Virus record (IMG/VR): IMGVR_UViG_3300042988_000771
Span: 1-64,000 of that record
DNA: 64,000 nucleotides
DNA from: a virus
Strand: one strand, 5' to 3'
The position numbers were made by a program, and so were the translations under genes. The stretch's first letter is position 1; every line of letters begins with the position of its first letter. Below the pieces are notes generated by a model. The model was given only the letters and a program-made list of their open reading frames with translations, was not told the origin of the DNA and did not search any database. Shown here in pieces: positions 1-26,625 of the stretch.

Positions 1-745
1 TCCGTGCCCTCGCGATCCGGCTGTCCGTGCGCGAGATGACCCGCTCGTTGACGGTGTTCTGGCTGCCGATCCTGCGCGCCTGCTGACCCGCCTGGCGGGA
101 CTTGTAGCCCAGGACACCGGCTGCCCCCGCGCTTCCCGCTGCCCCACCGGCCAGCCCGTACTGCTCGGCCTTCATCCGGCGCTGGCGACGGTCCTCGGGA
201 TTCAGGCCTGAGTACCTCTTGCGCTTGGGCGGAGCAGCAGGCTTGGGTGCCATCTTGAACTTGCGCTGCTGCGGAGGAGCGACCATCTTCTTGCCCTCGT
301 CATCGACGTCGTCCTCGTAGCGGACGAACTTCCCCGCGGCGATCTTGTTGCGGTAGTCCTTCATCCCCTCGGCCTTGGCGCGTCGCGCGTCTGCCTCTGC
401 CCTCTTGGACTCCATGTCGACGACGGCCTTGTGGACGACTCCGAAGGCTGACTTGGCCACCTTCTCTTCCCTTCTCGCTAGGGCTCGCTCGTTGGCGGCG
501 AAGGTCAGGCCGCTGACCCCACCTACGCCTGCTCCGGTAGTGACCAGGCCCAGCGAGGTCTTGTCCAGGTTGTCAGCAGCCTTGGGCGTCAGGCGCAGCT
601 TCTCGGCGACCTGTGGCGCCCGCTTGAGGGCAGACCGCGTGGCAGCAGCCCCGCCCTTGGTTCCCAGCGCAGACAGGCCCAGCGTGGCTCCCGTGACCGA
701 GAGTCCCGCCTGAATCCGATGGCGCCGGGCCATGTCCTTGGCCAT
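1..745 (-). CDS. AFGV-tagged basic Gly/Ala-rich protein, truncated at window edge
   Basis: Not in the ORF track. ATG at 743-745 overlaps the upstream stop and the frame is open to the edge. Reads MAKDMARR...EKVAKSAFGVVHKAVVD..., with the internal tag at 425-460. Confidence 0.8.
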   Translation of the reverse strand, partial: MAKDMARRHRIQAGLSVTGATLGLSALGTKGGAAATRSALKRAPQVAEKLRLTPKAADNLDKTSLGLVTTGAGVGGVSGLTFAANERALARREEKVAKSAFGVVHKAVVDMESKRAEADARRAKAEGMKDYRNKIAAGKFVRYEDDVDDEGKKMVAPPQQRKFKMAPKPAAPPKRKRYSGLNPEDRRQRRMKAEQYGLAGGAAGSAGAAGVLGYKSRQAGQQARRIGSQNTVNERVISRTDSRIARAR

Positions 746-1212
746 CAGAACCTGTTCTTCCCCGAGACCGGGACGATCTTGATCTTGGAGTTGTGCCTGC
801 CCGCGTTGTACTGGCGGGCGATCTTGTTGGACCGGGCGTTGTGGGCCATGCCAGCCCCGGTCACACCCGCGCCCGCCGTGAAGACGCCGCCCAGCAGGCC
901 AGCGGCGGCCAGCTTGGGCTTGTCCGCCACCCGGCTGATGACCTTCGCCGCCCGCATGGAGCGTGGGCCGACGACCTTGTAGCCGCCGACATCCGTGGTC
1001 TTCTTGTTCGCCAGGAACGCCTGGTGGTTGACCGCGCGAACAGCCTCCGCCACCTGCTCGGGCCTTGCTGCCGCATACGCCCCGCCAGCAGCGGCTGCGC
1101 CCATGAGCGTTCCGCCCGCCGCCCGCCGCCTGTTGGCCTTCTGGCGATGCGACTGCACGCGGGTGATCTCGTCCGAGTAGAGGCCCTTGGAGACCCCGAA
1201 GGCGTCCCTCAT
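745..1212 (-). CDS. AFGV-tagged protein, putative capsid-internal cargo
   Basis: Start moved to MRDAFGVSKG (ATG 1210-1212, just after the upstream stop). Contains two Gly/Ala hydrophobic segments and basic linkers. Confidence 0.8.
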   Translation of the reverse strand: MRDAFGVSKGLYSDEITRVQSHRQKANRRRAAGGTLMGAAAAGGAYAAARPEQVAEAVRAVNHQAFLANKKTTDVGGYKVVGPRSMRAAKVISRVADKPKLAAAGLLGGVFTAGAGVTGAGMAHNARSNKIARQYNAGRHNSKIKIVPVSGKNRF

Positions 1213-1213
1213 G

Positions 1214-2479
1214 TCAGTACCTACGCTGCTTGCCCATGCCGTAGCCCGCTGCCCCAGCCGTGCCAGCAGTAGCGCCAATGGTGCCGACAGCCGCACCCGT
1301 CGGGTGTGCAGCGGCGAAGTTGCCGACCTTGGTCGCGCCGGTCTTGATCTGGTTGAGGCCGGACTTGATGCCCGCTCCCGCGCCTACCGCCCGCGCACCG
1401 GCAGTGCCCGGCTTGTAGGGGGTCACGCCACCCTTGAAGCCAGTCTTGACTGCTCCGATGAGGGGCTTGAAGGAGATCTTCGAGACCTCCTCGTACTCGT
1501 GGTCCACCCCGAATGCGCTCTTGTGAATGTAGGACACGTTCGCCTCCCGCTCTGCGAGCCGCTGACGCAGCGACGCGTTCTCGGCCTCCATGGCCTTGCC
1601 ACGGGCCTTCTGGTACTTCTTCTTGGGGACGATGACGCCGTTGTGATACTCGCTCGCCCGCTCGCCCTTGCGGGCCGCACGCCAGTCGCCGGAGGCCAGC
1701 GCCTCGTTCTGGGCATCGCGTCCTGCGCGGTACTCGTTGGTGGCGGCACCGGACAACGCCCCCATGCCAGCGCCGACTCCTGCACCAATGCCCGCACCAG
1801 CGAGGAGCACCTTGCTCGGCACCCGCCCACCACTGGCAGCCATGCCAGCACCCGACGCCGCGCCCAGCCCTGCGCCCACGGCTGTGTGACCGCCCAGGGT
1901 CCGCCAGTTCTTGCCCGGCCGCTCGCCCTTCTTGGTGTAGCCAGCCTTGGACCGGATGTTGGCAGCGGCCCGCTCGCGCGCGTCCTCGGAGTCGAAGCCC
2001 CAGCCGCGGTCCTTCTTCTTCTCGATCTTGGACTTGTTGGGGTTGGCGCGCAGGTGACTGAGCTCGGCGCTGCGTCGCGCCTCCTGACCGGCAACAGACG
2101 CGCCGATGCGGCGCTTGCCCGACTTGCCGTGCCGGTAGGCCGCGTAGCCACCCACGGCGGCAGTGGTGCCAAGGAGCCCGCCAACGGCCCCGCCCGCACG
2201 CACGCGCGAGGCGCCCTCAACGGCCTTCATGGCGCTGAGGGTTCCGCCCACATTCGCGCTGCCCCCACTAGCAGCCCGCACGCCGTTCTCCACGGCGATG
2301 GCGCGCTGGGCACGGCTCACGTTGCGCAGCCTGGTGCCCGCCGTCCGTGCGCCGATCCGCTTGCCCGCGCTCTGGCCGACGATTGAGCCGCCCAGGAAGG
2401 CACCGGCGTACTTGGTGTTCCGCTTGTCGCCTTCCTCGCCCTTCCAGGCCTTGGCAACGCCGAACGCATCGGTGGTCAT
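1214..2479 (-). CDS. AFGV-tagged polyprotein with glycine-zipper segments
   Basis: Start MTTDAFGVAKA (ATGA overlap with the upstream gene). Internal YIHKSAFGVDHEYEEVSK and several GxxxG-rich helices. Confidence 0.8.
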   Translation of the reverse strand: MTTDAFGVAKAWKGEEGDKRNTKYAGAFLGGSIVGQSAGKRIGARTAGTRLRNVSRAQRAIAVENGVRAASGGSANVGGTLSAMKAVEGASRVRAGGAVGGLLGTTAAVGGYAAYRHGKSGKRRIGASVAGQEARRSAELSHLRANPNKSKIEKKKDRGWGFDSEDARERAAANIRSKAGYTKKGERPGKNWRTLGGHTAVGAGLGAASGAGMAASGGRVPSKVLLAGAGIGAGVGAGMGALSGAATNEYRAGRDAQNEALASGDWRAARKGERASEYHNGVIVPKKKYQKARGKAMEAENASLRQRLAEREANVSYIHKSAFGVDHEYEEVSKISFKPLIGAVKTGFKGGVTPYKPGTAGARAVGAGAGIKSGLNQIKTGATKVGNFAAAHPTGAAVGTIGATAGTAGAAGYGMGKQRRY

Positions 2480-4803
2480 TTCACTGCTCTCCCTACCCGC
2501 AAAACCTCGTCGGCATGCGAAATGGCGTTGTTGATCTTGGCGGCCAGCTTGGGCTGGGGCTTGCTTGCTTCGGCACGCAGTTCCTCGATGGGACGGGCTG
2601 CGTTGGGCTTGCGGGCACGGCGTACGTGCCCGCTCATGAACCTGTCCGTCACCACCGTGGCCAGCGTGCGTGGGGCCTTCTCCGGGCGGTCCACGACCTT
2701 CACCGGGACCTTGTCCAGCCCCGCCCACTCGGATGCCTGGAGGCGATGGTGGCCGCCCCGGATGACCGACTTCCCGTTCTTGTAGCGGTGGACGACGATC
2801 GGCTCGTCGGGCTTGAACCCCGACTCGGCCATGTTGACGGCGATGCGGGCGGTGTGGGACCGGTTGCCCGCTCGCGCTCCGCCCCCGCGCGCGATGGCCC
2901 GCAGGTCGGACACGGAGGCCTGGCCGCTCTTGGCCGACTCCGAGATGCGCTCGGACGCCCCGCCGTCGTCAGGAAGCTTCTTCCAGTAGGGGGTGGCTGC
3001 TCCTCCTGCGACCGCCACGCCACCAGCGACGGCCGCTTCCTCCTTGTGGCCCTTGGAGATGTAGTTCTTCTCCACCCGCTTGCCCGAGCCGTGGATGGAG
3101 AAGCCCGTGCGCTCTCCGTTCTTGACCATGTCCCACTGCTTGTCGTCGTTCACCTTGAAGCCCACCCACCAGCCGTGGGGGAGAGCGTCCGAGCGCAGGC
3201 CCATCTTCTGGAGCTTCTCGGGGGTGACGACGAAGGACTCCACCATGTCCGAGGTGTGCAGGGGCAGCTCTCCGTCACGGGAGTGCATGTCCCCGCCCTT
3301 GCGGGAGTCGATGACGTAGGAGTACGCCGCCTTCTCGATCTCCTCCAGCGGGATGTAGTCGCCCTGGAGGTCGATGACCTCCTCGCCGTTCAGGTGGGTG
3401 ACCGTGCACCAGCCGAACACCTGGCGCTTGTCGGTGTCCATCTTGGCGATCTCGCCCGTCCAGGTCAGTTCGGGACCGGCATCCTTGCGGACCTTCTGCT
3501 TCTTGGGCTTGAGCGTCTTGCGGGGTGCATGGCCGATCGGCACGCCGTACTTCTTGGCCCGGTGGTTGGCACCCAGCTGAGCCACGCCCACCGGGATGGT
3601 CGCCGCGCCTGCCACGCCGCCCGCGCCGATGAGGGCGAGCTTGCGGCCCTTGCGGTAGAGCTTGTCACCCGTCTGGTTGACGGTGTTCGCAACGTGGTCG
3701 GCGGCGCCCTTGATCTGGCCACCGACGTTGTCGGCCGCCGTCTTGACGGAGCCTGCCGCGCCCTTGACGGCGTCCCGCGTCTCGTTGACGCCCGCCCGCA
3801 CGTCCCCGACAGTCCCGCGAACCTCGTCCACCGTGCGGTTGACGCTCTCGGGCAGCTTGCGCGACTCGGCACCTGCGGACTGAATCGTGGACCGGGCCTC
3901 CGTGCCTGCCGCCCGCACAGTGGTGCGAGCCTCCTCGCCCGCTGCCTTCATGCCGCCACGGATGACGTTCTGGGCCTCGTCCCCGCCCGCCTTGAGGGCG
4001 GCCAGGCCGATCTTGCCCGCCTCGGTCTTGAAGCTCTTGGTGATGTCGTCACGACGACGCAGGGCCAGCGGCTTGGTGGCCGCCTTGGCCTTCTTGTAGT
4101 TGCCGATCGCCTTCGTGGCGGCCGGGTCGATTGCCCGGTAGCCCTCCCGTGCCATCTGGACCTTCTTGGACGGGACGATCGCGCTCATGTCCACGAGCTG
4201 CTCGGCAGCCTGGTGGATCGCCCGCGCATCGGGGGAGTCGGCCTTGGCGACCGTGTCGAGCAGGTCGCTGGCCATGCGCACGGCGGTGTCCGTGTCGATG
4301 CGTCCTGCCCGGCGAGCCTGGACGATGTCCCCGAGCGCCTTCTTGATCTCCTTCTTGGCCTCGCGACCGAGCACCCGGTTGGCCACGACGTCGCCCACGG
4401 TGTTGCCCGCCTGGAGGGTGACCGCGCCACCGGCGCCGATCCGGTACAGCCGGGCACGCCCCTCCTTCGTGGCGAGGTAGCGCCCGGCAGCCGTCGATGG
4501 CTCCTTCGAGTGCTTCCCCGATGCCGCGAGCATGCTGGTGACCGGACCGCCCTTGTAGGCGTCCGGGATGCTGCGGCGCAGGGCGGGGTTCTTGGCAGCC
4601 GCGACGAGGGCGGCGCCACCGGCTGCCAGCCCGACGACGTTGGAGGCGAGGCCAACCTGAGCCTCGCGCTTCTCCCGCTTCGCCTTGGCGCTGGGAACAT
4701 GGACCTCGGACGCATCTGCCTGCTTGGACACCACATCCCAGAGTTCACGGGAGTCGACGGCGTTTCCGAAGAGCTCGGCCACGATCACGTCGAAGGCGTC
4801 CAT
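2476..4803 (-). CDS. Prohead protease polyprotein: XkdF-like (peptidase S78-type) domain plus C-terminal ParB-like domain
   Basis: KRQVFGW...IDLQGD...GDMH...VESF...GWWVGFKV...TGFSIHG matches XkdF-type phage proteases (~3070-3460). IVV...IRGGHHRLQA...VPVKV is ParB/Srx-like (~2680-2900). Start MDAFDV is inferred from promoter spacing; the alternative start is 4821. Confidence 0.8.
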   Translation of the reverse strand: MDAFDVIVAELFGNAVDSRELWDVVSKQADASEVHVPSAKAKREKREAQVGLASNVVGLAAGGAALVAAAKNPALRRSIPDAYKGGPVTSMLAASGKHSKEPSTAAGRYLATKEGRARLYRIGAGGAVTLQAGNTVGDVVANRVLGREAKKEIKKALGDIVQARRAGRIDTDTAVRMASDLLDTVAKADSPDARAIHQAAEQLVDMSAIVPSKKVQMAREGYRAIDPAATKAIGNYKKAKAATKPLALRRRDDITKSFKTEAGKIGLAALKAGGDEAQNVIRGGMKAAGEEARTTVRAAGTEARSTIQSAGAESRKLPESVNRTVDEVRGTVGDVRAGVNETRDAVKGAAGSVKTAADNVGGQIKGAADHVANTVNQTGDKLYRKGRKLALIGAGGVAGAATIPVGVAQLGANHRAKKYGVPIGHAPRKTLKPKKQKVRKDAGPELTWTGEIAKMDTDKRQVFGWCTVTHLNGEEVIDLQGDYIPLEEIEKAAYSYVIDSRKGGDMHSRDGELPLHTSDMVESFVVTPEKLQKMGLRSDALPHGWWVGFKVNDDKQWDMVKNGERTGFSIHGSGKRVEKNYISKGHKEEAAVAGGVAVAGGAATPYWKKLPDDGGASERISESAKSGQASVSDLRAIARGGGARAGNRSHTARIAVNMAESGFKPDEPIVVHRYKNGKSVIRGGHHRLQASEWAGLDKVPVKVVDRPEKAPRTLATVVTDRFMSGHVRRARKPNAARPIEELRAEASKPQPKLAAKINNAISHADEVLRVGRAVK

Positions 4804-4809
4804 GTTCCT

Positions 4810-4828
4810 ATCGTCCTGCATCAGTCAC
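4810..4828 (-). promoter_or_regulatory. Late promoter motif, protease gene
   Basis: GTGAC-TGATGCAG-GACGAT-N6-ATG. Confidence 0.55.
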
Positions 4829-4834
4829 TCCACT

Positions 4835-9900: not shown

Positions 9901-10977
9901 CTCCACGCCGCGGTAGCGGTACGCGCTCTTGCGTGCGGTGGGGCCGATGACCTTCTCCGCCTCGGGCGCGTACTTGCCCGCCCACTCTCCGACATGCAGG
10001 GCGAGCTGGGCCTTCGGGGGCAGGTACTTGCCGCCCATGTCCAGCGCGAGCTTGGAGGAGGCCTCCAGGCGCCGCCACAGGCGATTGGTGTTGGAGGTCT
10101 GGTCCCGGTTCTGCCGGTCCGTCCAGGAGTCGCGGAATGCCCCGCCGCCTGCGACTCCTGCCACCCCAGCGCCCGTGGCGAAGTCAGCGAAGCCGGGAGA
10201 CCCGGTCATCGCCGTCAGGGCGTCCAGGGACAGCGTGCGCGCGTCCCCATTCCTCTCGGAGAGAGCAATGACCCGCTCCACACGGCGGTCGTTGGCGTAG
10301 TCACTCTCGGTGACCAGGCCGCGATCGGTCTGTGGGCTGGCCTGGTCGGTGAGCACCTGCGCGGCGCGCTGGGCCTGCCCGACCGTGCCATCGGTGTAGG
10401 CCGCCTGGACATAGGTGTCCGCGAGGCTGTTCCCCAGCGTTCCCCGCAGGTCATCCAGTGCACGGACCACCTGTGCGTAGTCATGCTGATAGGCGGCCTT
10501 GCGATCGGGGCTGAGCGTGGTGGGGTGCGCGCGCAGGCCGGTGGTCGCTGCCGCCACGTCGTCCGTCATGGGCGTACGAGGGCTGTTGTGGATGATCTTG
10601 CGGTTCATCACGCGCCAGCGACCACGCGCGTCGCGCATCTGGTCCTTGACCTCCTGGGAGCGCTCCCACTCGGTGAGCTGGCTGGCCTTGGAGATGAGCT
10701 CGACGATCCCCCGCGCATCCTGGGCGGACTTGGAGACCGAGCGGCTCAGGCCACGGGTGACCTCCTCGATGCGCTTGGAGACGTAGGCGCGGGAGACCTG
10801 CTCGATGTAGCCGGAGTTGTGCTCCATGAGCTGGGTGGTGTTGTCGAACAGCGCCTTGGAGACGACGAAGGGAGCCTCCTGGGGATGCTCCATGACCCAC
10901 TCGTAGGCATCGACCGCAGCCGCGAGGTTGAACGGCTCGTCCTCACCGATGCCGAAGAACTCCTTGGAGTACGTCAC
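6931..10977 (-). CDS. Large multidomain head-associated protein with a degenerate JAB-like domain and a C-terminal CbbX/SpoVK/EccA-family AAA+ ATPase
   Basis: GNPGTGKT (Walker A), GGVIFIDEAY (Walker B), NPGLQSR and GNARDV are typical of CbbX-family AAA. The gene lies between portal and MuF. Confidence 0.8.
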   Translation of the reverse strand: MTYSKEFFGIGEDEPFNLAAAVDAYEWVMEHPQEAPFVVSKALFDNTTQLMEHNSGYIEQVSRAYVSKRIEEVTRGLSRSVSKSAQDARGIVELISKASQLTEWERSQEVKDQMRDARGRWRVMNRKIIHNSPRTPMTDDVAAATTGLRAHPTTLSPDRKAAYQHDYAQVVRALDDLRGTLGNSLADTYVQAAYTDGTVGQAQRAAQVLTDQASPQTDRGLVTESDYANDRRVERVIALSERNGDARTLSLDALTAMTGSPGFADFATGAGVAGVAGGGAFRDSWTDRQNRDQTSNTNRLWRRLEASSKLALDMGGKYLPPKAQLALHVGEWAGKYAPEAEKVIGPTARKSAYRYRGVEKKPWTGYQDEIDTLRQQKGSGRAAHDTLIHGYKDETGNSRRPEEGVREDRRPSRTIQHMRSLLPDPGLYELNRKSGTIPPSQGIIIDRKGEVVTEAMGYGDDWYLPFNLKNLSKLQGGEYIRTRAYGGLTTEDIYTGLVGGARSVTVVSHSGVFTMEFDDDFRGSRRYNDKAARMVGRYGQVLDAVKSEKVSLGSIPHDRRVELEMEAVKYGAKDSDRYRKALDDLIEKEPREPKLSEVATNKVKWDAINQHVIDNAKGNNVDEWAQRREIQIDRQGGDKAAFRARMANPDSAAEELAAIKDVERAVDKATRVYAESINPLRLNARGYATAMNALKEQFPYYIKDPVFTPWTDGLAADKTDRGYVKPRYIRPHSVATGYYDESITGRGKVHGDQINYQNWSSRKKSGDAPEPTADEFVDEEEQQTTVRVSSPSPDRTPAPVDPAQSRQSATLDLIRALRAQTVLSPMNTTGTQGAITDAFREADPVKAVLGGTEDEVRARLADPAGQREVEAALTFIKSKKMFDVDAGMWDRSPKVIPLPEDDMTLVNNLGVRDFAMSRIPSGETTAWYESVITPMLNKSVNPQVASLGITMDSTHAEVKAAVKDRAANLRGFLQAWDNYDKELISTQPSLSRKDIRREAEDLAAISTAFRLRQERADAEKAAADAEASRVIHTFSDEETKQALSGVVPKDDAPEEGAADEVDALKAAAAPYRNELASMVGMDEMVGQMDRLVARAAAAKRRERMGKPNADRPMSMIFAGNPGTGKTTVAEIMTKLYYDIGLTENTNFLKLSKKDLVGGTANDIAERTRNQLEMGKGGVIFIDEAYTLNSNEYGREVIDELVPFMSENPDTVFIFAGYPKEMQEFREETNPGLQSRLNTVIEFRDYTAPELVQIASHAMDKQGRTANAATKKRISNAVAQIHAHPKYNGNARDVVDTFLGKVADAHDERLLAHPQVTPEMEDEFTTSDVEYAVRAMGLKPPAVRRKKVA

Positions 10978-11822
10978 GACTTCTCCTTCTTCTTCGGGTA
11001 GCGCAGTTCCAGTCGGTGGACGCGCTTCTCGTCCCTCTGGTGCTGGCGGTAGTTGGCGACCGTCAGCGGTGCGCCCACAGCCACCACGGTGCCGCCCAGC
11101 AGCGCCGGATGGCTCACGATCCTGCCAGCCTTGCCGGGGAGATTCTTGCCTGCGCTCTGGGCCAGCGAGACCGGCTTGAGGACGCGGGTGTTGGTCAGCG
11201 CACCCGAGCCCGGAGCCTTCAACTGCCGCAGGTTGGGGTACTTCTCCGCCCAGCGGTTGTAGGTGCCGATGGCGGCGTGAGAGGCGCCTGCGGCCGTCGC
11301 CGTGCCCGCGAGGTCGGTGTTCAGGCCAGACTGGCGCTCCTTGAGCTTGGCCCGGCGCACGCGCTTGTCGTCCCCGATGGTGAAGGCCTTGGACACGCCC
11401 TTGGCACTGCGCATGGGCGGGTAGTACTCCTTGGTCTCCGGGTCGGTGTAGCCGTGCTTCTCGTAGTGGAGAAGTTCCTTCATCTCGCGATCCTGCGTCT
11501 TCTTGCGCTGGGCGCGAAGGTACGCAGGAGAGTCGTACTTGGACCGCTCGATGCCGCCTGTGGGTGCCTCGAAGCGCCCCGGCAGCGGCTGGCCGCCGCG
11601 ACCATGCAGGAGGCGCTTAATCCCCTTGTTGCGTGGGGCGAAGCCGTGGGTAGCTGGGCGCGTGTACTCCACGCCCTTGGCAGTGTTGCGCGACTGGACC
11701 TTGGCCGTCTTGGCCCACTCCTGCGCCTCACCCTGGTTGTAGGTGGAGTACTTGACCCGACCCTCAGGCACCAGTGGTCCGTCGGACTTGGACACGCGCT
11801 CTACACCGAAGGCGTCCTTCAC
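10974..11822 (-). CDS. AFGV-tagged basic protein
   Basis: Starts (M)KDAFGVERVSKS, has internal GVSKA and C-terminal hydrophobic segments, and overlaps the portal stop by GTGA. Confidence 0.8.
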   Translation of the reverse strand: MKDAFGVERVSKSDGPLVPEGRVKYSTYNQGEAQEWAKTAKVQSRNTAKGVEYTRPATHGFAPRNKGIKRLLHGRGGQPLPGRFEAPTGGIERSKYDSPAYLRAQRKKTQDREMKELLHYEKHGYTDPETKEYYPPMRSAKGVSKAFTIGDDKRVRRAKLKERQSGLNTDLAGTATAAGASHAAIGTYNRWAEKYPNLRQLKAPGSGALTNTRVLKPVSLAQSAGKNLPGKAGRIVSHPALLGGTVVAVGAPLTVANYRQHQRDEKRVHRLELRYPKKKEKS

Positions 11823-13723
11823 TTCTTCTCCTCCGGCTTCTTCTTGGCAGCGTCAGCCTTGGGCTTGAACTTCATCGCCTTGAGCTTCTCGCCGTGGACC
11901 TCCTGGCCCTGCTTGGACTGCAAGCGGGCCTGACGGACCTTCTCCGCGGCCAACTGCGCCTCGGTCTTGGTGCCGATCTTCTCCCGCTCAAGGGCCTGCC
12001 GGTTGACGGCGTCGGTGTGCTTGAGCGCCATCTCCTTGTCGCGGGTGTCCGGGGGCTGGGTCTTGAGGGCGGCCTGAGCCTTCATCTCCTCCAGCGTCAA
12101 CTGGTGCTTCTCCTCGGCATGGCGCTGGAGCTGCTTCTTGCCCTCCAGGTCCAGTTCGCCCGACTGCACGGTCTGGGCAGCCTGAGCCGCCTGCACCTCG
12201 GGGTTGGACTGCTCGGAGGCCTGCTGCTCGGCCAGCGTCATCTGCTGGGCCTGCTGCTCCATGCCCATCTTCTGCTGCTCCATCTGCATGGCGCCCTGCT
12301 CCGCCTGCTGGCTCAGCCCGATCATCTCCACGCGCTGCTGCGCGAGGCGCATGATGTTGGCCTGCCGTGCCTCGGTCTCCTTGACCGCCTCGGACGTCTC
12401 GTCCAGCTTGGGCAGGCGAGCGGCATCGCGCAGGAACTTCTCCAGCTCCGGGTCCGGGAACCACTGGATGCCCGCGCTCTGCAACTGGCCCATGAAGGAG
12501 GACAACTGGGTGATGTCGGGCGGGTCGATGTCCCCGGCGATCAACTGGGGCAGCTCGTCCAGCTTCCACCCGTTGACCTCGAACAGGCGGGGGATGGCGT
12601 AGCGGTTGAAGACGTCCGCGATGGAGTCCGCGATGGACTGGATGCCCGCGCGGAACAGCCCGGTCTTGTCGGTGTGCAGGGAGTAGGAGCCCACGGACTG
12701 ATGGCCCACCAGGATGAAGTCGGCCAGCACCGTGCCGAGGATGCGCTCCTCGTAGCGCCGGATGATGCCGTTGATGTCGAACTGCCGCGTTCCTCCGCCG
12801 CCCAGCAGCGAGAAGTCGAACATGTCCTGCTTGGTGTCGGGGTCGATCATCCGCGGGATGATCACGCCCTCCTGCTCGTTGCGGCGCACGGAGCGGACCA
12901 TCGTCTTGAAGGCCTGGACCATCTTCTCCTTGTCCGTGCCCTTGGGGGCGGACAGGTAGTCGGCCGGGACGCGGGCCATCGGCAGGCCAGCGAGGTCGCG
13001 CTCGGCGCCGATCCCCTCCAGTTCCTCCAGGCGCTTCTTCATGTACCAGGGGCGGTAGGCGTTCCTCAGGAAGGAGCGGCCCTCAGGGTTGCCCTTGGCC
13101 GTGCTCACGCGGAAGAGCAGGGACTTCTCGATGGGGATGACGACCTGCTTGTAGGCCGGGGGAGCCATCTGCACCATGGCGCGGATGCCGCCCGTGTCAT
13201 CGAACACCCAGCGGGTGAGGGTCTCCTGAGCGCGGATGGGGATCTTCCGCCATCCGATGCGCCCGTCCGTGAACTTGGAGCGCTTCTTGGGGTCCTTCTC
13301 CCACGGGGAGACCCGGCGCTTGTAGACGATCTCGTGCCAGGACCAGCCGAAGGGCAGCATGGACAGCACCTCGGAGATGACGTCGTCCCAGGTGGAGGAC
13401 ATGTCCTCCATGCACTGCTCCACGAACTCCGCGGCCTTCTTGGCCTCGGCATCGGACCCCGAGGGCTCCACGCGCCAGTCGATGCCGCGCAGGAGGCGAT
13501 CCACGGCGAACAGCAGCGCCCCCACGATGGGGTCGTTGTCGGACATCTCCTTGTAGACCTGGACGGCCTTGCGCCCCTTGAGCTGGGGCAGGAACTCCTC
13601 GTTGATGAAGCCCGAGGTGCGACGAAGGCCCGTCGCGCCCAACTCGATGGTGGGCGAGACGTTCTTGGGGATCTCCTGACCGGGGAAGAGATCAGTCCCG
13701 CCCTCGTACTGGGTCGCACTCAT
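11819..13723 (-). CDS. Portal protein (Mu gp29/DUF935-like) with Gln/Glu-rich coiled-coil tail
   Basis: YKEMSDNDPIVGALL, GWSWHEIVY, GNPEGRSFLR and ERDLAGLP motifs. Directly downstream of terL. Confidence 0.85.
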   Translation of the reverse strand: MSATQYEGGTDLFPGQEIPKNVSPTIELGATGLRRTSGFINEEFLPQLKGRKAVQVYKEMSDNDPIVGALLFAVDRLLRGIDWRVEPSGSDAEAKKAAEFVEQCMEDMSSTWDDVISEVLSMLPFGWSWHEIVYKRRVSPWEKDPKKRSKFTDGRIGWRKIPIRAQETLTRWVFDDTGGIRAMVQMAPPAYKQVVIPIEKSLLFRVSTAKGNPEGRSFLRNAYRPWYMKKRLEELEGIGAERDLAGLPMARVPADYLSAPKGTDKEKMVQAFKTMVRSVRRNEQEGVIIPRMIDPDTKQDMFDFSLLGGGGTRQFDINGIIRRYEERILGTVLADFILVGHQSVGSYSLHTDKTGLFRAGIQSIADSIADVFNRYAIPRLFEVNGWKLDELPQLIAGDIDPPDITQLSSFMGQLQSAGIQWFPDPELEKFLRDAARLPKLDETSEAVKETEARQANIMRLAQQRVEMIGLSQQAEQGAMQMEQQKMGMEQQAQQMTLAEQQASEQSNPEVQAAQAAQTVQSGELDLEGKKQLQRHAEEKHQLTLEEMKAQAALKTQPPDTRDKEMALKHTDAVNRQALEREKIGTKTEAQLAAEKVRQARLQSKQGQEVHGEKLKAMKFKPKADAAKKKPEEKK

Positions 13724-13729: not shown

Positions 13730-13748
13730 ATCCTCTCAGGCGCGTCAC
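13730..13748 (-). promoter_or_regulatory. Late promoter motif, portal gene
   Basis: GTGAC-GCGCCTGA-GAGGAT-N6-ATG. Confidence 0.55.
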
Positions 13749-15223
13749 ACCAGCAGGCTGAATCCGTTCGGGGTCTCATCCTTGACGTAGACCTCGATGG
13801 AGGCGGCAGGGGAGAACATCTTCTCCAACTGGCTCGGCTCATCATCGCGCTTGACCGTAACCGGCCCCGCGGCCCTTCCGCCGCGCCCCATGACCCGGAA
13901 GGCCAGGGCGAAGGAGCAGACCTCGTCGGGAAGGTGGAACTCCTGGCTGCGGGAGTACAGGTCGCCCACCTGCGCGTACTTGTGGGCGAGGTAGGCGCTC
14001 TTGACCCGCGGGGCCTTGAGGCGGCCCTTCTCCACGGCGTTGACGTACTCGGACAGCATGGCGTCCCGCTTCTCGCCCGTCATCAGGAACGAGCGAGCGC
14101 GGACATCAACGTAGTCATTGACCACGTTGCCAAGTCCAGTGCCATCGTGAATAGCATCCGCGCTATATCGCTGTATCGCATCGTTGAACCACCCGATCAT
14201 CTGTGGGTAGGGCCTGCGGTTCACCCGCATGTAGTAGACCAGTTCGAAGGGCTCGCGGTCGGCTCGCCACACGCTGATGACCGTGTAGTCCTGCTCCTTG
14301 CCCCAGTCGGCGCCTGCGACGTAGTGGCCGTCCCGCTCGTACTCCGCGAAGGTGTACTCCTCGAAGTCCTTGCTGACCTTCTCCTTCAGGGGCTCGGGAG
14401 CCTTGTCGAACATCCTGTCCACGGCCTCGGTGTTGAAGGCGCGGTTGCCGATGGCAGGCTCACCGAGCTCGTACTCGGTGCGCCACATCTCGGCCGGGAT
14501 CTCCAGCTTCTTGGCGTCGATGGTCTCCTGGGTGAGCCAGCCGTCGATGGGGTTGGCCGAGCACTGGTAGCACCACTGCACGATGGGCAGCCCGCGGTCC
14601 TCGAAGCGCTTCCTGACCTCAGTGAAGGTTCCCTCAGGGTTCTGCCAAGTAGAGCACATTACGGTGTAGGGCTGGATGACCTCGCCGAGGTAGTTCTTCT
14701 GTGGCATCGGCTGGCCGAGGGCCGCATCGAGGATGTCGATGTCCATCTCGTCGATCTCGTCGAGGATGAGGAACGGCGGGTGGGGGCCACGGACGGTCTT
14801 CTGGCTTGCCGTCAGCGGGCGGATCTTGGCCTTGTTCGTCAGCTTGATGAGCGTCTGGCTCTCGGTCTCGATCATGTACCGAGGGCTGTTCTCGTAGTTG
14901 AGGGCGTTCCTCATGTGCTCATGGAGGTTGGAGGACTGCGCGAGGGAGCCGCCCAGCAGGTTGGTGTCCGCGCCCAGCAGGAAGGTCTTGGTCAGCCCCA
15001 GGATGCCCAGCATGAAGGACTTGCCCGACAGGCCGCGGCTCCCATGCCACAGGCAGGTGCTCGGCCCCCTGTTGAAGTACGCGTCCGCGAAGGCCGTGAA
15101 GGGCGGGGTGTGGTCGGGGTTCCCGCAGGTGTGGCGCGGGATGACCACGCCCCACATCGTGTTGACGACGTGCCAGAGCTCGTCATCGGTCTCCGGCAGC
15201 CGCCCGAGGTAGAACTGCGGCAC
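13745..15223 (-). CDS. terL: Terminase large subunit
   Basis: SRGLSGKS (Walker A-like), LILDEID (Walker B), GADWG...DYT and PDEVCSFALA nuclease motifs. GTG start at 15221-15223 follows the upstream stop. Confidence 0.88.
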   Translation of the reverse strand: MPQFYLGRLPETDDELWHVVNTMWGVVIPRHTCGNPDHTPPFTAFADAYFNRGPSTCLWHGSRGLSGKSFMLGILGLTKTFLLGADTNLLGGSLAQSSNLHEHMRNALNYENSPRYMIETESQTLIKLTNKAKIRPLTASQKTVRGPHPPFLILDEIDEMDIDILDAALGQPMPQKNYLGEVIQPYTVMCSTWQNPEGTFTEVRKRFEDRGLPIVQWCYQCSANPIDGWLTQETIDAKKLEIPAEMWRTEYELGEPAIGNRAFNTEAVDRMFDKAPEPLKEKVSKDFEEYTFAEYERDGHYVAGADWGKEQDYTVISVWRADREPFELVYYMRVNRRPYPQMIGWFNDAIQRYSADAIHDGTGLGNVVNDYVDVRARSFLMTGEKRDAMLSEYVNAVEKGRLKAPRVKSAYLAHKYAQVGDLYSRSQEFHLPDEVCSFALAFRVMGRGGRAAGPVTVKRDDEPSQLEKMFSPAASIEVYVKDETPNGFSLLV

Positions 15224-15224
15224 C

Positions 15225-15905
15225 TCAGGCTCCGGGGTACTCGGCGACCGTGCCGTCCCCGGAAGCCTGGTAGTGGAAGTCGAAGGAGAGACCGAAGGCA
15301 CCCACGGTGAAGGTGTCGGCCGCGTTCGCGCCCTCGCGGAACAGGCGGCAGGAGAACACGCTGCTCACCCGCTTGCCCGTCCCATCCAGCGGGGCGAACT
15401 GCGCGATCTGGTGGGAGTAGGCCACTCCCGCCGCAGCGGCATTCACGTAGAGCGTGGTGCTCGCCGGGAAGGCCTCCGTGGCGTTGGCCCACGTGTACTC
15501 CAGCCCCCAGCGGACCACACCCGTGTTCGTGGAGTTGCCCGGCGACCAGTGCAGGTGCGGGCGGATCTCCGTGCCCTCGTCCCACGTGTGCGGGATCTGG
15601 GCGTCGAACATCACCGAGTTGGTGGCGTCCTGGATGAACCGGAAGCCCATCGTGGTGTTGCGGAAGTTGACCAGGGTCGGCGGGTCGGTGGACACCGCTG
15701 CCCGCACGATGGACACCCGCAGGTCGTCCCACAGCGGGTTGTCCCCACTGGCCGACCCCACGGGGGCACCATCAGCCGTGATCAGGCCCTGCTTGATCCG
15801 CAGCAGAGCCGATGACCCCAGCGACGCCGAAGGCACGACATCGCCGGGGCCATAGGTCACGCCGCCCACTGTGAGGGGGCGGACGGCGTAGTACGTAAGT
15901 GCCAC
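15225..15905 (-). CDS. Probable virion structural protein
   Basis: Short N-terminal YxxGDVV module and beta-rich body, in the late operon with coupled starts and stops. Confidence 0.5.
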   Translation of the reverse strand: MALTYYAVRPLTVGGVTYGPGDVVPSASLGSSALLRIKQGLITADGAPVGSASGDNPLWDDLRVSIVRAAVSTDPPTLVNFRNTTMGFRFIQDATNSVMFDAQIPHTWDEGTEIRPHLHWSPGNSTNTGVVRWGLEYTWANATEAFPASTTLYVNAAAAGVAYSHQIAQFAPLDGTGKRVSSVFSCRLFREGANAADTFTVGAFGLSFDFHYQASGDGTVAEYPGA

Positions 15906-16722: not shown

Positions 16723-16745
16723 TTGGGCACCTCCCTTTCCCCTTT

Positions 16746-16764
16746 AGTCTTTCACTCGTGTCAC
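16746..16764 (-). promoter_or_regulatory. Late promoter motif, holin gene
   Basis: GTGAC-ACGAGTGA-AAGACT. Confidence 0.55.
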
Positions 16765-17015
16765 CTAGGCCGGTTGATGACGATCTGCTCGGGGATGTGC
16801 CCGCCTACCGCCCTGGCCCATGCCAGACCCTCCTCGGTGATGTTCCGGGAGTGGCAGGGGCGCAGCCCCGCCTCGTTGGCGAGGCTCCACATGAAACGCC
16901 CGACGCCCTTGCGCCTCCACTCAGGTTCCACCCACACCTTGTCGATCACGCCGTCCTCCCTGACGACGAGCCTGCCGATCTGCCTGCCCGAGACGCAGAC
17001 GGTGATCTCGTCCAT
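16761..17015 (-). CDS. Small GNAT acetyltransferase
   Basis: IDKVWVEPEWRRKGVG matches GNAT motif A (acetyl-CoA binding). Confidence 0.75.
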   Translation of the reverse strand: MDEITVCVSGRQIGRLVVREDGVIDKVWVEPEWRRKGVGRFMWSLANEAGLRPCHSRNITEEGLAWARAVGGHIPEQIVINRPR

Positions 17016-17371
17016 CAGTCGTAGGTGTTGCTGCCGAAGGAGTGGATGCGCGTGCTCGCCGTGCTGGAACTCGCCCTCTCCTCCCTCATGGTCCGGATGC
17101 GCGAGTGCCTCTCGTCAACCCCATAGCCATCATCCCTCTGCTTCATGCGCATGGGAATGACGTCCCCTAGATCCGCGACAACGTGCGGCAGGGAGAAGAC
17201 CGCATATTCTCCCCAGTCCTCGTACTCGAACAGCGTGGTCTTGTAGCCCACCGCGAGGACGCTCTCCGCATACACCGTGACGGTGTTCCCGGTCTGCTCG
17301 TTGAACCGCGTGAGCGACACCTGCGAGGCGGCCGTCTCGCCCGTGACGGTGTTGAGCCAGTAGACCTTCAC
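17015..17371 (-). CDS. Hypothetical protein, tail block
   Basis: GTG start overlaps the upstream stop. Codon usage is consistent with its neighbours. Confidence 0.55.
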   Translation of the reverse strand: MKVYWLNTVTGETAASQVSLTRFNEQTGNTVTVYAESVLAVGYKTTLFEYEDWGEYAVFSLPHVVADLGDVIPMRMKQRDDGYGVDERHSRIRTMREERASSSTASTRIHSFGSNTYD

Positions 17372-19191: not shown

Positions 19192-19193
19192 GG

Positions 19194-23092: not shown

Positions 23093-23095
23093 GGA

Positions 23096-23518
23096 CTACG
23101 TCCCAGGCATCGTGATGGTGAGTGCTCCTGGAGCGAAGGCAGCCTGGACACCAGTGAGGACAGGAGCGGGGTTGTCCAAGGCTCCCCAGCCCACGAAGTT
23201 GCCACCCGAGATGGCGTCGTAGATCACGAAGTGGGTGAGGTCTGAGCCCGAGGCCCAGTCGGCGGTGGCCACGGCGAAGGTGACGTTCTGGGCGTTGGCC
23301 TTGACCCGCGAGACTGCTGCGCTCCAGTAGGTGGCGCTGTTGGTCACGCCCACACGCGCATACCCGCTGCCTCCCGCAGGCTCGGTGACATTGGTGCCGG
23401 TGTCCGTGGGCTCGGTGCTGGACAGCCCGACGTAGAAGATCGCGGGGAAGGTGTTGGTCGCCTTGCCAAAGGCGATGTCCAACGTGAGGTTCGCGTACGT
23501 GTTCGACAACTTGCCCAT
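23096..23518 (-). CDS. Small tail protein, paralog 1 of 3
   Basis: YVGL...P...E..G.GYAR...N...TF...THFVIYDA..GGN pattern shared with its two neighbours. Confidence 0.65.
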   Translation of the reverse strand: MGKLSNTYANLTLDIAFGKATNTFPAIFYVGLSSTEPTDTGTNVTEPAGGSGYARVGVTNSATYWSAAVSRVKANAQNVTFAVATADWASGSDLTHFVIYDAISGGNFVGWGALDNPAPVLTGVQAAFAPGALTITMPGT

Positions 23519-23534
23519 CAGTTCTCCTCAGTAG

Positions 23535-23960
23535 TCATCCTTCGCCGCCACCGCCACCGCCATCAGGCGGAAGGGCTGTCGTCCCGTCGTTCATCTGCAA
23601 GATCACCCGGTTCCACCCCAGCACGAGGCTATCGCCCTCGCCCACGTTCACGTAGGTGCTGAATCCACCCGACCATGACACGTCCATCTCGGTCAGCCCG
23701 TTGACCACGAACCATCCCGCGATGGCCCCTGCGGGCAGGTTGAGGAAGGTGATGTCCGCGTTGTTCGTCAACGCCGTCGTGTCATAGGGCTGGAGATCGG
23801 CATCGGGGACGAGGGCGACGCGGGTGCCAGCAATCTCACAGGCGGCCAGGTCCACCTTGGGCTCGCCTCCTGGGGTGTAGAGGCCGATGTACCACTCGTA
23901 GGCGAGGAAGGGCTCGATGCCCATGATGTGGTTGAGGATGGGGACGAGGTAGGAGCCCAT
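23535..23960 (-). CDS. Small tail protein, paralog 2 of 3
   Basis: WYIGLYT...E...TR...N.ADITF pattern. Confidence 0.55.
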   Translation of the reverse strand: MGSYLVPILNHIMGIEPFLAYEWYIGLYTPGGEPKVDLAACEIAGTRVALVPDADLQPYDTTALTNNADITFLNLPAGAIAGWFVVNGLTEMDVSWSGGFSTYVNVGEGDSLVLGWNRVILQMNDGTTALPPDGGGGGGEG

Positions 23961-24367
23961 CAGAACGCCTCCACCGAGAGGGAGTTGGACGGGATCGTGA
24001 CGAAGGACAGGGCCTTGATCGTCACCGTGTAGGGCAGGGGCGCATAGAGGACGACCTCACCATCGACGCTCTCGGTGCACAGCGCGTAGTGGCGCAGGAT
24101 GGGCCAGTCGGCATCGGCGTTGGAGTAGATGAGCGGTGCCGTGAACAGGCTGGCACCCGCCGTGGTCGCCGTCCAGGAGGTCAGCCCGTCCAGGGGGATC
24201 TCCTGGCGCACGTAGGCAGGGTCCGTGGGCTCGTAGGCGGCGATGTCCGTGCCCGTGTCATCGGCGGCAGCGGTGGTGTCCAGCAGGGCGAGCCACAGGC
24301 TGGTGGGCATGGTCTGCTGCCCGGTGAGCACGCCCACCATGAGGTTGGCCCCGTACTGGCTCAGCAT
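23960..24367 (-). CDS. Small tail protein, paralog 3 of 3
   Basis: LWLALL...EP...YVRQ...ADWP...HYAL...G pattern. Confidence 0.6.
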   Translation of the reverse strand: MLSQYGANLMVGVLTGQQTMPTSLWLALLDTTAAADDTGTDIAAYEPTDPAYVRQEIPLDGLTSWTATTAGASLFTAPLIYSNADADWPILRHYALCTESVDGEVVLYAPLPYTVTIKALSFVTIPSNSLSVEAF

Positions 24368-24813
24368 CAGAACGCTCCGCTCAGCGCGACGGGCTTGCGC
24401 GGGACCTGGAAGGTCGTCACCGCGTAGAGGGCGTGCAGGTGGACGGTGTCGAACTGGACCATGTAGTCCGCGGCCTCACAGTCCCATGCGTGCTGCTGGG
24501 AGCCCACGGTGATCATCAGGGTGTAGCGGTCCTGGCAGAAGGCGGTGATGAGGGCACCGATCTTGGTGTCCATGTCCGCCTGCGTGCTGCCCTTGACGTA
24601 CACGCTCAGGGGCTCCATGACGTTGGTCCGCCTGCGGGAGACGGTGATGTCCCCATCCACCCAGGGGGCGGACACCTGCCTGCGGTCCCAGGACACCTGC
24701 GCGCCCATGGCCGAGGGACCTGCCAGCACATAGGAGGTGTGGTCGTTGATGTCCAGGTCACCCAGGCTCAGGGCTGTCCTGGTGACCTTGGCGACGATGG
24801 TGAGATCGGTCAT
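24367..24813 (-). CDS. Distal tail (Dit)-like protein
   Basis: SAPWVDG...RR...LSVYVKG...D.KI..L pattern and position at the head of the tail block. Confidence 0.45.
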   Translation of the reverse strand: MTDLTIVAKVTRTALSLGDLDINDHTSYVLAGPSAMGAQVSWDRRQVSAPWVDGDITVSRRRTNVMEPLSVYVKGSTQADMDTKIGALITAFCQDRYTLMITVGSQQHAWDCEAADYMVQFDTVHLHALYAVTTFQVPRKPVALSGAF

Positions 24814-25292
24814 GCGGTCCTCAGCAGGGTCTTGGGCAGGCTTGCTGCTGCCATCCCAAGGTAGTCAGGCCGGTAGCCGATCTGCTGCATGAAGGCGCCC
24901 ATGGCGCGTCGTCCACGCTTGCTGGAGTGCACGAGCTTGTCCCCTGCGGACAGGACGTTGACCTGCGCCTTGACGGGCGCCTCCTTGGCCTTGAGCGTGA
25001 GCGTCCTGCCCCGCGAGATGACCTTCTGCGCTCCTGCGCCCTTGGACACGTGCTCAACCCCGAAGGCATCGCTCTTGCCGAACGACATGCGGGTGGCGTA
25101 GCGCTCCTGCTGGGTGGCAACGGCCTTCTTCGTTGCGGGATCGAGGAGAGCCTTGGCCTTCACCGGGTCCCAGTGGACGAAGTTGCCGGGCTGTGCTGGT
25201 ACGAGCTTGACCTTCTGAGCAGCCTGAGCGCCCCTCTTGACTGGACGAACCACATCCAGGAGGGACTTGTTGACTCCGAAGGCATCGGTCAT
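24810..25292 (-). CDS. AFGV-tagged protein with two tags
   Basis: MTDAFGVNKS at the N-terminus and internal FGKSDAFGVEHVSKG. Confidence 0.8.
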   Translation of the reverse strand: MTDAFGVNKSLLDVVRPVKRGAQAAQKVKLVPAQPGNFVHWDPVKAKALLDPATKKAVATQQERYATRMSFGKSDAFGVEHVSKGAGAQKVISRGRTLTLKAKEAPVKAQVNVLSAGDKLVHSSKRGRRAMGAFMQQIGYRPDYLGMAAASLPKTLLRTA

Positions 25293-25519
25293 CGGCGCAC
25301 CAGCTTGAGCAGCTTGGCAGCCACCTTGCCCTTCTTGCGCGGGAAGGCGTCAGAGGCCGTGTAGCGCATGACCTCGCGGGTGTCCATCCGCGCCATCAGG
25401 CGGCCACGCTCGGTCATGTCCGGGCCGGTGTACTTGGGCTTGGGTGTTCCTCCCCGCAGCATGGCATCGGCCTGAGCCTCGGTCATGGCCTTGTGAACGA
25501 CCCCGAACGCGCTGATCAC
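25289..25519 (-). CDS. AFGV-tagged small basic protein
   Basis: Starts (M)ISAFGVVHKA. Confidence 0.75.
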   Translation of the reverse strand: MISAFGVVHKAMTEAQADAMLRGGTPKPKYTGPDMTERGRLMARMDTREVMRYTASDAFPRKKGKVAAKLLKLVRR

Positions 25520-26250
25520 AGGTGGACCTTCGCGTCCTTGTTGCGCCCACGACCAGCAACGGCTCCTGCACCCGCGAGCAGGACAGCAGGGGCAGCGACA
25601 GCAGCGGCCGTCTTGCCCTTGCCCCAGCGACCGATGCGCCCGAGCTTGGGGTTGAACACCTTGCCCGCAGCCTTCTCCCCCGGCGTGCGGATGTCCTTCA
25701 TGGAGGGCGTTCCGCCCTCATGGAGCTGGTGACCTGCCCAGATCTTGCTCTCCAGGGGCGTCTGGGCCTTCGTGGGCAGATGGTCGGCGTTCCACGTCTT
25801 GCGTCCCGCTGCCACCACGCCAGCCCCAGCGCCTGCGCCTGCACCGCCACCGGCAATGCCCATGACCGTCGAGGTCTTGTCGGACTTGGCCACCTTGGTC
25901 TTGTGGGCGGCGAACGAGCCACCTGCGGCTGCGCCACCGAGGACGGGGACCGCTGCCAGGGCAAGGCCTGTCTTGCCGCCCTTGACCCGCGCTGTGCGTG
26001 CCCACTCCATCGGGTTGTACGCCCCGCCTACGCCCTTGGCTGCGCCCTTGAGCGCTCCGCTGCGGGAGTGGACAGCGTGCTTGCCCTTCTCGCCGTAGCC
26101 CACTGAGCCACGCTGGGCTGCTGCCAGGGCTGCCAGAGGGGCATTGCCCAGCACTGCACCACCTGCTGCTGACCCACCGATGATGGCTGCTCGCTTGGTC
26201 TTCTCGCCCTTGCTCACGAGGTCCCGGTCAACACCGAATGCGTCCTGCAT
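25516..26250 (-). CDS. AFGV-tagged glycine-zipper protein
   Basis: Starts MQDAFGVDRDLVSKG. An internal KVAKS separates two units, each with two Gly/Ala helices. Confidence 0.8.
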   Translation of the reverse strand: MQDAFGVDRDLVSKGEKTKRAAIIGGSAAGGAVLGNAPLAALAAAQRGSVGYGEKGKHAVHSRSGALKGAAKGVGGAYNPMEWARTARVKGGKTGLALAAVPVLGGAAAGGSFAAHKTKVAKSDKTSTVMGIAGGGAGAGAGAGVVAAGRKTWNADHLPTKAQTPLESKIWAGHQLHEGGTPSMKDIRTPGEKAAGKVFNPKLGRIGRWGKGKTAAAVAAPAVLLAGAGAVAGRGRNKDAKVHL

Positions 26251-26308
26251 CTGTCCTCCTAAGTCGGGCCAGCAGGGCTATGCCCACCTCACCCTGCTGG
26301 CTATGACC

Positions 26309-26327
26309 AGTCTCTCAGGGGCGTCAC
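26309..26327 (-). promoter_or_regulatory. Late promoter motif, AFGV/tail operon
   Basis: GTGAC-GCCCCTGA-GAGACT. Confidence 0.55.
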
Positions 26328-26337
26328 GCAGGGCTGA

Positions 26338-26625
26338 CTACTGCGACGCCCTCCACCGGGCCATCTCGGCGTCATGACGACGCCCAGCAGCGAGATCCTT
26401 GTTGCTCTGCTCCACGCGTGCTGCACGCGTGGACGCAGCGTTGGCGTTCACCCTGCGCAGCTGATTGCGTCCCGCCTTGGTGGTGCGGGGGAAGTGGGTG
26501 GTCAGGTAGCGCTTGACGGGGTTGGCCCCAAAGCCCGCCCTGAAGTTGTTCTTGGCCGCTACGGCTGCTGGCTGGAACAGTCCCTTGGAGATGTCCCCGC
26601 GCTCTACCCCGAATGCGTCTCTCAT
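26338..26625 (-). CDS. AFGV-tagged small basic protein
   Basis: Starts MRDAFGVERGDISKG. Confidence 0.8.
   Translation of the reverse strand: MRDAFGVERGDISKGLFQPAAVAAKNNFRAGFGANPVKRYLTTHFPRTTKAGRNQLRRVNANAASTRAARVEQSNKDLAAGRRHDAEMARWRASQ

Follow-up and report, generated by a model that had tools for sequence, protein, structure and literature searches.

The stretch of DNA analysed in this work, referred to as the window, covers positions 1-64000 of the 78,015-bp IMG/VR virus record IMGVR_UViG_3300042988_000771, which has an estimated completeness of 99%. A number of its genes encode otherwise dissimilar proteins carrying one short peptide, [DS]AFGV followed by a Lys site, which is called the tag in the following. 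The two ends of the record (genome positions 1-248 and 77768-78015) form a 248-base repeat with a single mismatch at position 128; the unit is thus about 77.8 kb and the sequence is a circular assembly or terminally redundant, though IMG/VR gives it as linear. The phage studied here is labelled G000, the relatives referred to below are G001, G002 and G006, and IMG/VR loci are given as L followed by a number.

Ten in-frame copies of [DS]AFGV on eight proteins, all on the minus strand, were found in the window by a six-frame scan, at the places where a preliminary description of the sequence had put them. N-terminal copies start at 26625, 26250, 25519 (GTG), 25292, 11822 (GTG), 2479 and 1212, and the three internal copies are placed in Table 1. 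An eleventh copy lies outside the window at genome position 74856, as the N-terminal MYSAFGVDHGDVVSK of a ninth tagged protein encoded directly downstream of the major capsid gene.

Genes were called heuristically from third-position G+C content and a ribosome-binding-site score. In the called proteins [DS]AFG[VI] was observed 12 times against 0.096 expected from 2000 residue shuffles, and 8 times within the first 8 residues against 0.0015 expected from the same number of shuffles. All 12 occurrences are on the coding strand and none was found in the three frames of the other strand. A chance origin of the tag copies is excluded. One further [DS]AFGV, SVSAFGVMPEQ in a neck or tail protein, has no Lys site and is probably unrelated to the tag.

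The codons differ between copies, with three kinds for Ala, four for Gly, four for Val, and both TCN and AGC for Ser. Because synonymous codons vary in this way, the tag is conserved at the level of the peptide, as had been proposed from inspection of the sequence.

Anatomy of the tag and position of the lysine site

Two degenerate DNA patterns for the tag were scanned over IMG/VR, giving at least 187 further loci; the census counts in the following refer to the matches listed. In a logo of 186 distinct N-terminal tags the order is Met, any residue, Ser (131) or Asp (50), Ala, Phe, Gly, Val (171) or Ile (15), Glu or Asp, and His (124) or Arg (31), followed by a spacer of 0-10 residues (mode 5) and the Lys site. 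The Lys site itself reads Ile (93), Val (69), Leu (12) or Phe (8), then Ser (156) or Ala (30), Lys, and Ala, Gly or Ser. The Phe and the Gly of the core are invariant. No condition was set by the filter on the residue two before the Lys, yet it is I, V, L or F in 98% of the tags.

Ser at position -1 is paired with His at position +5 (123 tags) and Asp with Arg (31 tags), without any crossed pair among the 186, and the net charge of the tag is therefore kept. One internal copy in G000, which is outside this set, has Asp together with His. The two flavours follow phylogeny, and both are present in G000.

The position of the Lys site depends on where the tag is found. In about 200 N-terminal tags a hydrophobic-x-Lys site follows the tag. 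Where the tag is C-terminal (about 24 genuine cases), the protein stops at SAFG[VI]xH or 0-4 residues later; no Lys comes after the tag, and in every case one is found 1-9 residues before it. Such ends are, for instance, VSK/SAFGVEHGV-stop, VGK/SAFGIEHQ-stop and PYAK/RD..SAFGIDHAH-stop, where a slash here and below follows the Lys of the site. Internal tags, including those in the window, have Lys on both sides. From these positions the unit is read as a recognition element (minimally SAFG[VI]xH, alternatively D-A-F-G-V-E-R) and a Lys linker that is always placed between the element and the protein body. This position rule is the most informative new result of the analysis, and the C-terminal and internal occurrence is also new.

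The tag had been described as a portable address with N-terminal and internal copies. Its portability holds, and with C-terminal copies besides the internal ones it is not specific to the N-terminus. Explanations tied to the N-terminus or to translation start are therefore excluded. A signal acting in DNA or RNA at start codons was likewise rejected, on the synonymous codon variation and on the C-terminal and internal copies. We also considered in-frame read-through behind the C-terminal tags and rejected it; only in G006 is there a tag-like continuation after the stop, and the others are true ends.

The G006 case is at about position 65552 (L065 485-540), where a TGA stands behind C-terminal SAFGVDHGY and the same frame continues beyond it with DGPELEVAKQ, similar to the second half of a tag. 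It could be read-through or a recent nonsense mutation, and is the sole such case among the approximately 24.

Distribution and nature of the tagged proteins

Well-formed N-terminal tags were found in 116 of the at least 187 loci, never on both strands and with at most 9 per locus. Homologues of the G000 capsid, scaffold, protease, portal or related genes are present in 93 of the 116 tag loci, compared with 8 of 71 tagless loci among the matches listed. The suspected tie to a head module encoding an XkdF-type protease is borne out by this pattern check in relatives. Related complete genomes carry 5 and 6 tag copies, all on the coding strand, and a control with the pattern written backwards gave 0. 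Portal relatives in IMG/VR have the same tag, often in the gene immediately after the portal.

Eleven complete or near-complete genomes of 73-83 kb, with a GC fraction of 0.59-0.69, have in common the gene order terminase, portal, large protein, MuF, XkdF, scaffold, cement and capsid. The slots for tagged genes recur across these genomes, after the portal, after the protease and after the capsid gene, and the number of tags per genome ranges from 0 to about 11. The slot after the portal, occupied in G000 by the 282-aa protein, also holds a tagged gene in L009, L011, L012, L015, L020 and L026. As judged from these sequences, the tag is widespread in uncultured soil phages and tied to one XkdF-encoding head module.

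A scan with the tag pattern over 185,579 species' genomes (one per prokaryote species) gave three matches, all by chance. The lineage is therefore not seen as prophages and the tag is not a host motif. The closest cultured relatives have portal and capsid proteins with 40-48% identity, and their hosts are Arthrobacter, Microbacterium, Pseudomonas, Roseobacter and Rhizobium. No common N-terminal motif was found in the nearest of them, Arthrobacter phages Kovu and Ottawa and Pseudomonas phage KPP23. The motif had been thought to be undescribed, and our literature search gave no paper that mentions DAFGV or SAFGV in connection with phages.

The 184 bodies from the listed loci fall into 112 BLAST clusters, 89 of which are singletons. 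Over all loci the bodies have a median length of 120 amino acids (aa), with 28% Gly and Ala, 18% Lys and Arg and 6% Asp and Glu, and 97% have a net positive charge. Glycine-zipper-like hydrophobic segments are often found in them. The G000 bodies have isoelectric points (pI) of 10.3-11.8, and six of the nine contain uncharged Gly/Ala-rich segments, two to four per protein and each 17-32 residues long. The tagged proteins of G000 match no Pfam or PHROG family and have no paralogues among themselves by BLAST. A BLAST search of them against G001 gave no homologue, though the portal (81%), the terminase and the capsid protein are 81-83% identical between the two phages. The view of the tag as a portable peptide is thus well founded, with at least 112 unrelated clusters and N-terminal, C-terminal and internal copies. 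The idea of a variable payload stands as far as the hypervariable bodies are concerned; these are mostly small, basic, Gly/Ala-rich proteins in conserved slots rather than enzymes.

Known domains are very rare in the bodies, with DUF6321 seen once. Matches to VapE and GNAT domains were discarded, as they probably come from chance 'tags' inside ordinary genes. In L177 the portal itself has a C-terminal tag, and in L176 the portal is fused via K-tag-K to 80 more residues; the junction in both corresponds to the gene boundary at 11819-11822 in G000. In L161 a 120-aa HNH_3 homing-type endonuclease (4563-4922, plus strand) ends with ..VSK/SAFGVEHGV-stop. It is either a tagged nuclease or an endonuclease gene inserted beside a tagged gene.

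The head module and its lysine sites

All tagged genes and head genes of G000 are on the minus strand (Table 1). In the order of transcription, four tagged genes (26625 down to 24810) are followed by four Gp80-like tail-fibre-type paralogues and three large unknown proteins. Then come the large terminase, the Mu/P23-45-type portal, a tagged gene, the 1348-aa protein and the MuF-like protein. These are followed by the 781-aa XkdF/ParB-like protein, two tagged genes and the 427-aa internally tagged protein across the junction, and finally by scaffold, cement protein, major capsid protein, a tagged gene, neck genes, tail tube and tape measure. The preliminary description had the copies at their right positions; its 'second cluster', placed in the order of transcription, lies upstream of the tail-tip-like genes and the terminase and is not a second head module.

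Table 1. Positions of tagged genes and of other features in the window. A slash follows the Lys of each Lys site.
Feature	Position	Strand	Details
Tagged 95-aa basic protein, pI 11.8	26338..26625	minus	tag MRDAFGVERGDISK (nucleotides 26584-26625); no Pfam/PHROG match; no homologue in G001 or G002
Tagged 244-aa basic protein	25516..26250	minus	tag MQDAFGVDRDLVSK; four uncharged Gly/Ala-rich segments; no family matches
Tagged 76-aa basic protein	25289..25519	minus	GTG start; short tag ISAFGVVHK
Tagged 160-aa protein	24810..25292	minus	N-terminal MTDAFGVNK; internal FGK/SDAFGVEHVSK/G (about 25041-25076), Lys sites on both sides
Tagged 282-aa basic protein, directly after portal	10974..11822	minus	tag VKDAFGVERVSK; start overlaps portal stop
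Tagged 421-aa basic Gly/Ala-rich protein	1214..2479	minus	N-terminal MTTDAFGVAK; internal IHK/SAFGVDHEYEEVSK/I (about 1478-1522)
Tagged 155-aa basic protein	745..1212	minus	shortest tag form MRDAFGVSK/G
427-aa basic protein across circular junction (248 residues in window)	1..745	minus	internal VAK/SAFGVVHK/A (about 428-454)
Head protease, 781 aa	2476..4821	minus	XkdF domain at aa 457-584, Pfam Peptidase_S78_2 1e-19; ParB-like PHROGs
Large head protein, 1348 aa	6931..10977	minus	first 100 residues with tag-like FFGIGED and four [VI]SK sites
MuF-like minor head protein, 699 aa	4835..6934	minus	PHROG head morphogenesis families; weak Pfam Phage_Mu_F match
Portal protein (Mu / P23-45 type)	11819..13723	minus	Pfam Portal_Mu 2e-33; phrog_113 3e-88
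Large terminase subunit	13745..15301	minus	Pfam Terminase_6C; phrog_9
WhiB-like transcription factor	28732-29292	minus	Pfam PF02467, 3e-17

The head protease has a tag-like propeptide (..MDAFDV..LFG..DVVSK/Q), Gly/Ala-rich segments, the XkdF domain, a linker NYISK/G and a ParB-like C-terminal domain, in this order. The variant of the tag reported earlier at its start, MDAFDV..DVVSK, is real and spans residues 7-33. The match to XkdF/Peptidase_S78_2 has 71 bits compared with a Pfam cut-off of 24, and H272, S288, S333 and H335 are invariant across 21 protease homologues. Among these 21 the propeptide motif ..LLFGxGxDEL[IV][SA]K is conserved, and in most of them the Lys site ends the propeptide. 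Every protease with a C-terminal extension (5 open reading frames, 4 distinct linkers) has a Lys site in the linker after XkdF. Nothing was found by Foldseek with the protease model.

In the scaffold a Lys site is found once or twice just before the conserved tail VFDxNPxAYDEYL. The body of the large head protein is conserved in 11 of 11 complete genomes, and in 10 of the 10 examined for Lys sites it has 2-4 of them within the first ~100-220 residues. Hydrophobic-[SA]-K occurs 45 times in G000, with 27 expected, and the strict [VI]SK form is confined to late genes.

The major capsid protein matches phrog_1005 (1e-76). Its AlphaFold2 model has a predicted template modelling score of 0.64 and, by Foldseek, is closest to 3bjq (2e-13), followed by encapsulins and phage capsids at 1e-5 to 1e-6; on this model the protein is predicted to have the HK97 fold. 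The N-terminal 60 residues are its most conserved part, with 41 of 60 columns at 90% or more compared with 114 of 273 elsewhere.

Additionally, some features of these head proteins were observed in passing. The scaffold N-terminus (..EIDEISLVDRPANQHARVAIAKR; genome 76377-77153, L053 12377-13153, minus strand) weakly matches the S78 protease C-terminal strand motif in Pfam, and its sequence in cultured relatives, ETSGVDHPAH, is similar to the tag core FGVDHG. A strand motif of scaffold or protease may have given rise to the tag. The ParB-like nuclease domain (window 2476-3020, minus strand) is fused behind XkdF through the ..NYISK/G linker; in G002 the ParB-like stretch is instead inside an 827-aa tagged protein downstream of the protease. 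The large head protein of relatives (e.g. G002 from 38740 onward) has a conserved ..NPYDYGY.F....F.RDP..G.F... after the N-terminal Lys-site region. In G000 and G001 only, it ends with a CbbX/EccA1-type AAA+ domain (6934-7983, minus strand; E-value 3e-32 to 3zuh). This domain was considered as a reader of the terminal tag and rejected, as it is missing from nine other complete tag-bearing or related genomes.

A protein atlas search with the 421-aa tagged protein gave unnamed viral clusters only. The G001 homologue of the 427-aa junction protein has a tag at the same position. The Gp80-like and large tail-tip-like genes (window 23096-24813, minus strand) are upstream of the terminase in G000 and G001, and directly after the tape measure gene in G002 (62644-63012) and most other relatives. 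Their different position among relatives indicates a rearrangement of the late region. A 166-aa protein (27466-27966, minus strand), encoded a short way upstream of the first tag cluster, has an Acb2/Tad1 hairpin domain (Pfam PF24729, 5e-19) and is likely a sponge for cyclic-nucleotide defence signals. Since the phage encodes WhiB, an actinobacterial host is plausible for G000, in line with the suggested actinophage origin.

Function of the tag

We read the tag as a detachable procapsid-targeting peptide with a protease-cut linker, and give this reading a probability of about 0.55. The recognition element would dock on a conserved interior component during procapsid assembly, the candidates being the scaffold and the HK97-fold capsid protein with its inner face or N-arm. 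The tagged proteins, protease included, would be co-assembled inside the shell, and the XkdF-type protease would then cut after the Lys. This cut would free the bodies from their tags and the scaffold from its capsid-binding tail, and would trim the large head protein. The freed basic Gly/Ala-rich bodies would stay with the DNA and probably exit the capsid with it at infection.

The nearest known counterpart is the capsid-targeting sequence of phage T4, found on internal proteins IPI-III and Alt and removed by gp21. Here as there, a short common terminal peptide is found on unrelated, basic, hypervariable proteins; in G000 these are 11 copies on 9 proteins that show no mutual BLAST similarity. 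In both phages a prohead protease is encoded, the cleavage site (predicted in our case) adjoins the tag, and the proposed fate of the bodies is packaging, followed by ejection together with the DNA. The T4 motif is of the MKTYQEFIAE type, whereas ours is SAFG[VI]xH..[IV]SK. The T4 peptide ends with L/I-x-E and is cut by a gp21-type (S77) protease, whereas in G000 we find [I/V]-[S/A]-K and Peptidase_S78_2. Because motif, cleavage residue and protease family all differ, the tag does not belong to the T4 family, and it would work like the T4 sequence from outside that family. Furthermore, our phages have a siphovirus-type head module with a separate scaffold and also carry the tag at C-terminal and internal positions.

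Other viruses share parts of this logic. HK97 gp4 protease has a short terminal targeting segment that carries it into the prohead, and it cuts the scaffold-like delta domain of gp5 after Lys (K103/S104). In HK97, however, only the protease carries such a segment, scaffold and capsid protein are joined in one chain, and there is no tagged cargo family. Adenovirus pVII and pre-mu are small, very basic, DNA-associated precursors whose ends are trimmed by the viral protease inside the particle; as the virus is unrelated and uses a cysteine protease with the motif (M/I/L)xGx-G, the analogy is confined to the logic. In giant phages the prohead cleavage site is S/A/G-x-E. Many head and ejection proteins of phiKZ, 201phi2-1 and SPN3US are trimmed at a consensus site during maturation, according to the abstracts of two reports (PMC10052503, PMC7411985). 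The protease of these phages is T4-like and of another family than XkdF, and the same abstracts describe no single common tag sequence.

Encapsulin targeting peptides have a core of two hydrophobic residues split by Gly, with a basic residue nearby (PMC7925596). They are short terminal peptides (T. maritima ..GGDLGIRK; consensus DGSLGIGSLKG) that bind the interior of an HK97-fold shell. The tag resembles them in its F-G-[V/I] core, present in all 186 tags, in the acidic residue before it and the Lys (or His/Arg) after it, and in the existence of C-terminal copies. Encapsulin peptides are uncut and mostly C-terminal, whereas here a Lys site is always found between tag and body and a head protease is encoded, from which cleavage would follow, and the shell is a viral capsid with protease, scaffold and DNA. 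The structural match of the capsid model to encapsulins is generic for the HK97 fold. We take the resemblance, which is one of sequence, as a lead rather than a test. That the tag is the viral counterpart of the encapsulin peptide, with its F-G-V core docking in a homologous inner-face or N-arm pocket and the cut linker releasing the cargo, is a speculative proposal, which we hold to be rather improbable.

Several points weigh against procapsid targeting as set out above. G006, a complete genome with the same head module, has no N-terminal tag and one C-terminal tag, and the tag system is therefore dispensable or replaceable for head building. No cultured phage with the tag was found by tblastn with 21-residue queries, though with a query of this length the test is weak. 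Part of the logo reflects the search patterns used. We found no documentation in the literature of the cleavage specificity of XkdF-type proteases, and the AlphaFold2 model of the protease (mean predicted local distance difference test score 51) is confident for the XkdF domain only and gave no docking of the propeptide. An [IF][SA]K just before XkdF was considered as a self-cleavage site and set aside; it is also present in distant tagless phages, and as a feature of the family itself it adds no independent evidence. Finally, the turnover of the bodies, which are of low complexity and sit in conserved slots, could in part reflect rapid drift in a small number of structural or assembly proteins.

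In an alternative explanation the tagged proteins are auxiliary scaffold or core parts that the tag recruits to the assembling core, with fragments that are expelled or serve as inert counter-ions of the DNA, so that nothing acts in the next host. The conserved slots inside the head module, the related motifs in scaffold and protease, and the low-complexity, basic bodies nearly without enzyme domains all fit it, and the T4 scaffold core is likewise made of several processed proteins. Extreme turnover between close relatives would, however, be unusual for scaffold parts fitting a conserved shell, as would a tag number varying from 0 to about 11 per genome, and the glycine-zipper-like segments suggest membrane activity after ejection. 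We consider this explanation unlikely. As the bodies are mostly small, basic and Gly/Ala-rich and lie in conserved slots, they may nevertheless just as well be head proteins, of the core or associated with the DNA, as effectors. Slightly less probable still is that SAFG[VI]xH is an exosite motif for docking to the protease without capsid targeting, and that the cut after Lys activates or inactivates proteins, membrane proteins for instance, that act in the infected cell and not within the capsid. Such a role would account for a tag that always adjoins the Lys site, for the membrane-active look of the bodies and for the one tag cluster away from the head genes, beside lysis-like, WhiB and Acb2/Tad1-like genes. 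The activity of prohead proteases is, however, normally confined to proheads, most tags are within the portal-to-capsid block, and the motif on the protease, the scaffold and the portal of one lineage fits co-localisation in the procapsid better.

It is very improbable that the tag has no separate function and marks one fast-diverging paralogous family, or that it is a host signal for secretion or for a host protease, as with Prp in the case of Firmicute phages. The bodies are alike in their basic, Gly/Ala-rich composition, and AFGVSKG loosely recalls FF/ASKK, which is cut by Prp in head proteins of phage 80alpha. The bodies within one genome are, however, without mutual similarity, and the tag is N-terminal, C-terminal or internal and found on a portal, an HNH endonuclease and a DUF6321 protein. 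No hydrophobic signal-peptide core follows the tag, the prokaryote genomes gave only chance matches, and Prp is not known from Actinobacteria.

Capsid-targeting tags have been documented experimentally mainly in T4, and less clearly in giant phages and P1. If procapsid targeting is the true function, the tag would be a second, independent solution, with a different protease family, in siphovirus-like soil phages of 73-83 kb, a large and abundant lineage that is entirely uncultured. Its simple grammar, a tag and a Lys linker at either end of a protein, would make head-internal proteins predictable from sequence alone, and the tag, with its 7-14 residues, could be tried as a means of bringing proteins into HK97-fold capsids. 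There would also be a testable link to encapsulin cargo loading; were the tag indeed a counterpart of the encapsulin peptide, loading by a hydrophobic-Gly-hydrophobic core into HK97-fold shells would be common to tailed phages and encapsulins. The lineage would furthermore hold a large pool of basic, glycine-zipper-like proteins that may enter the host together with the DNA.

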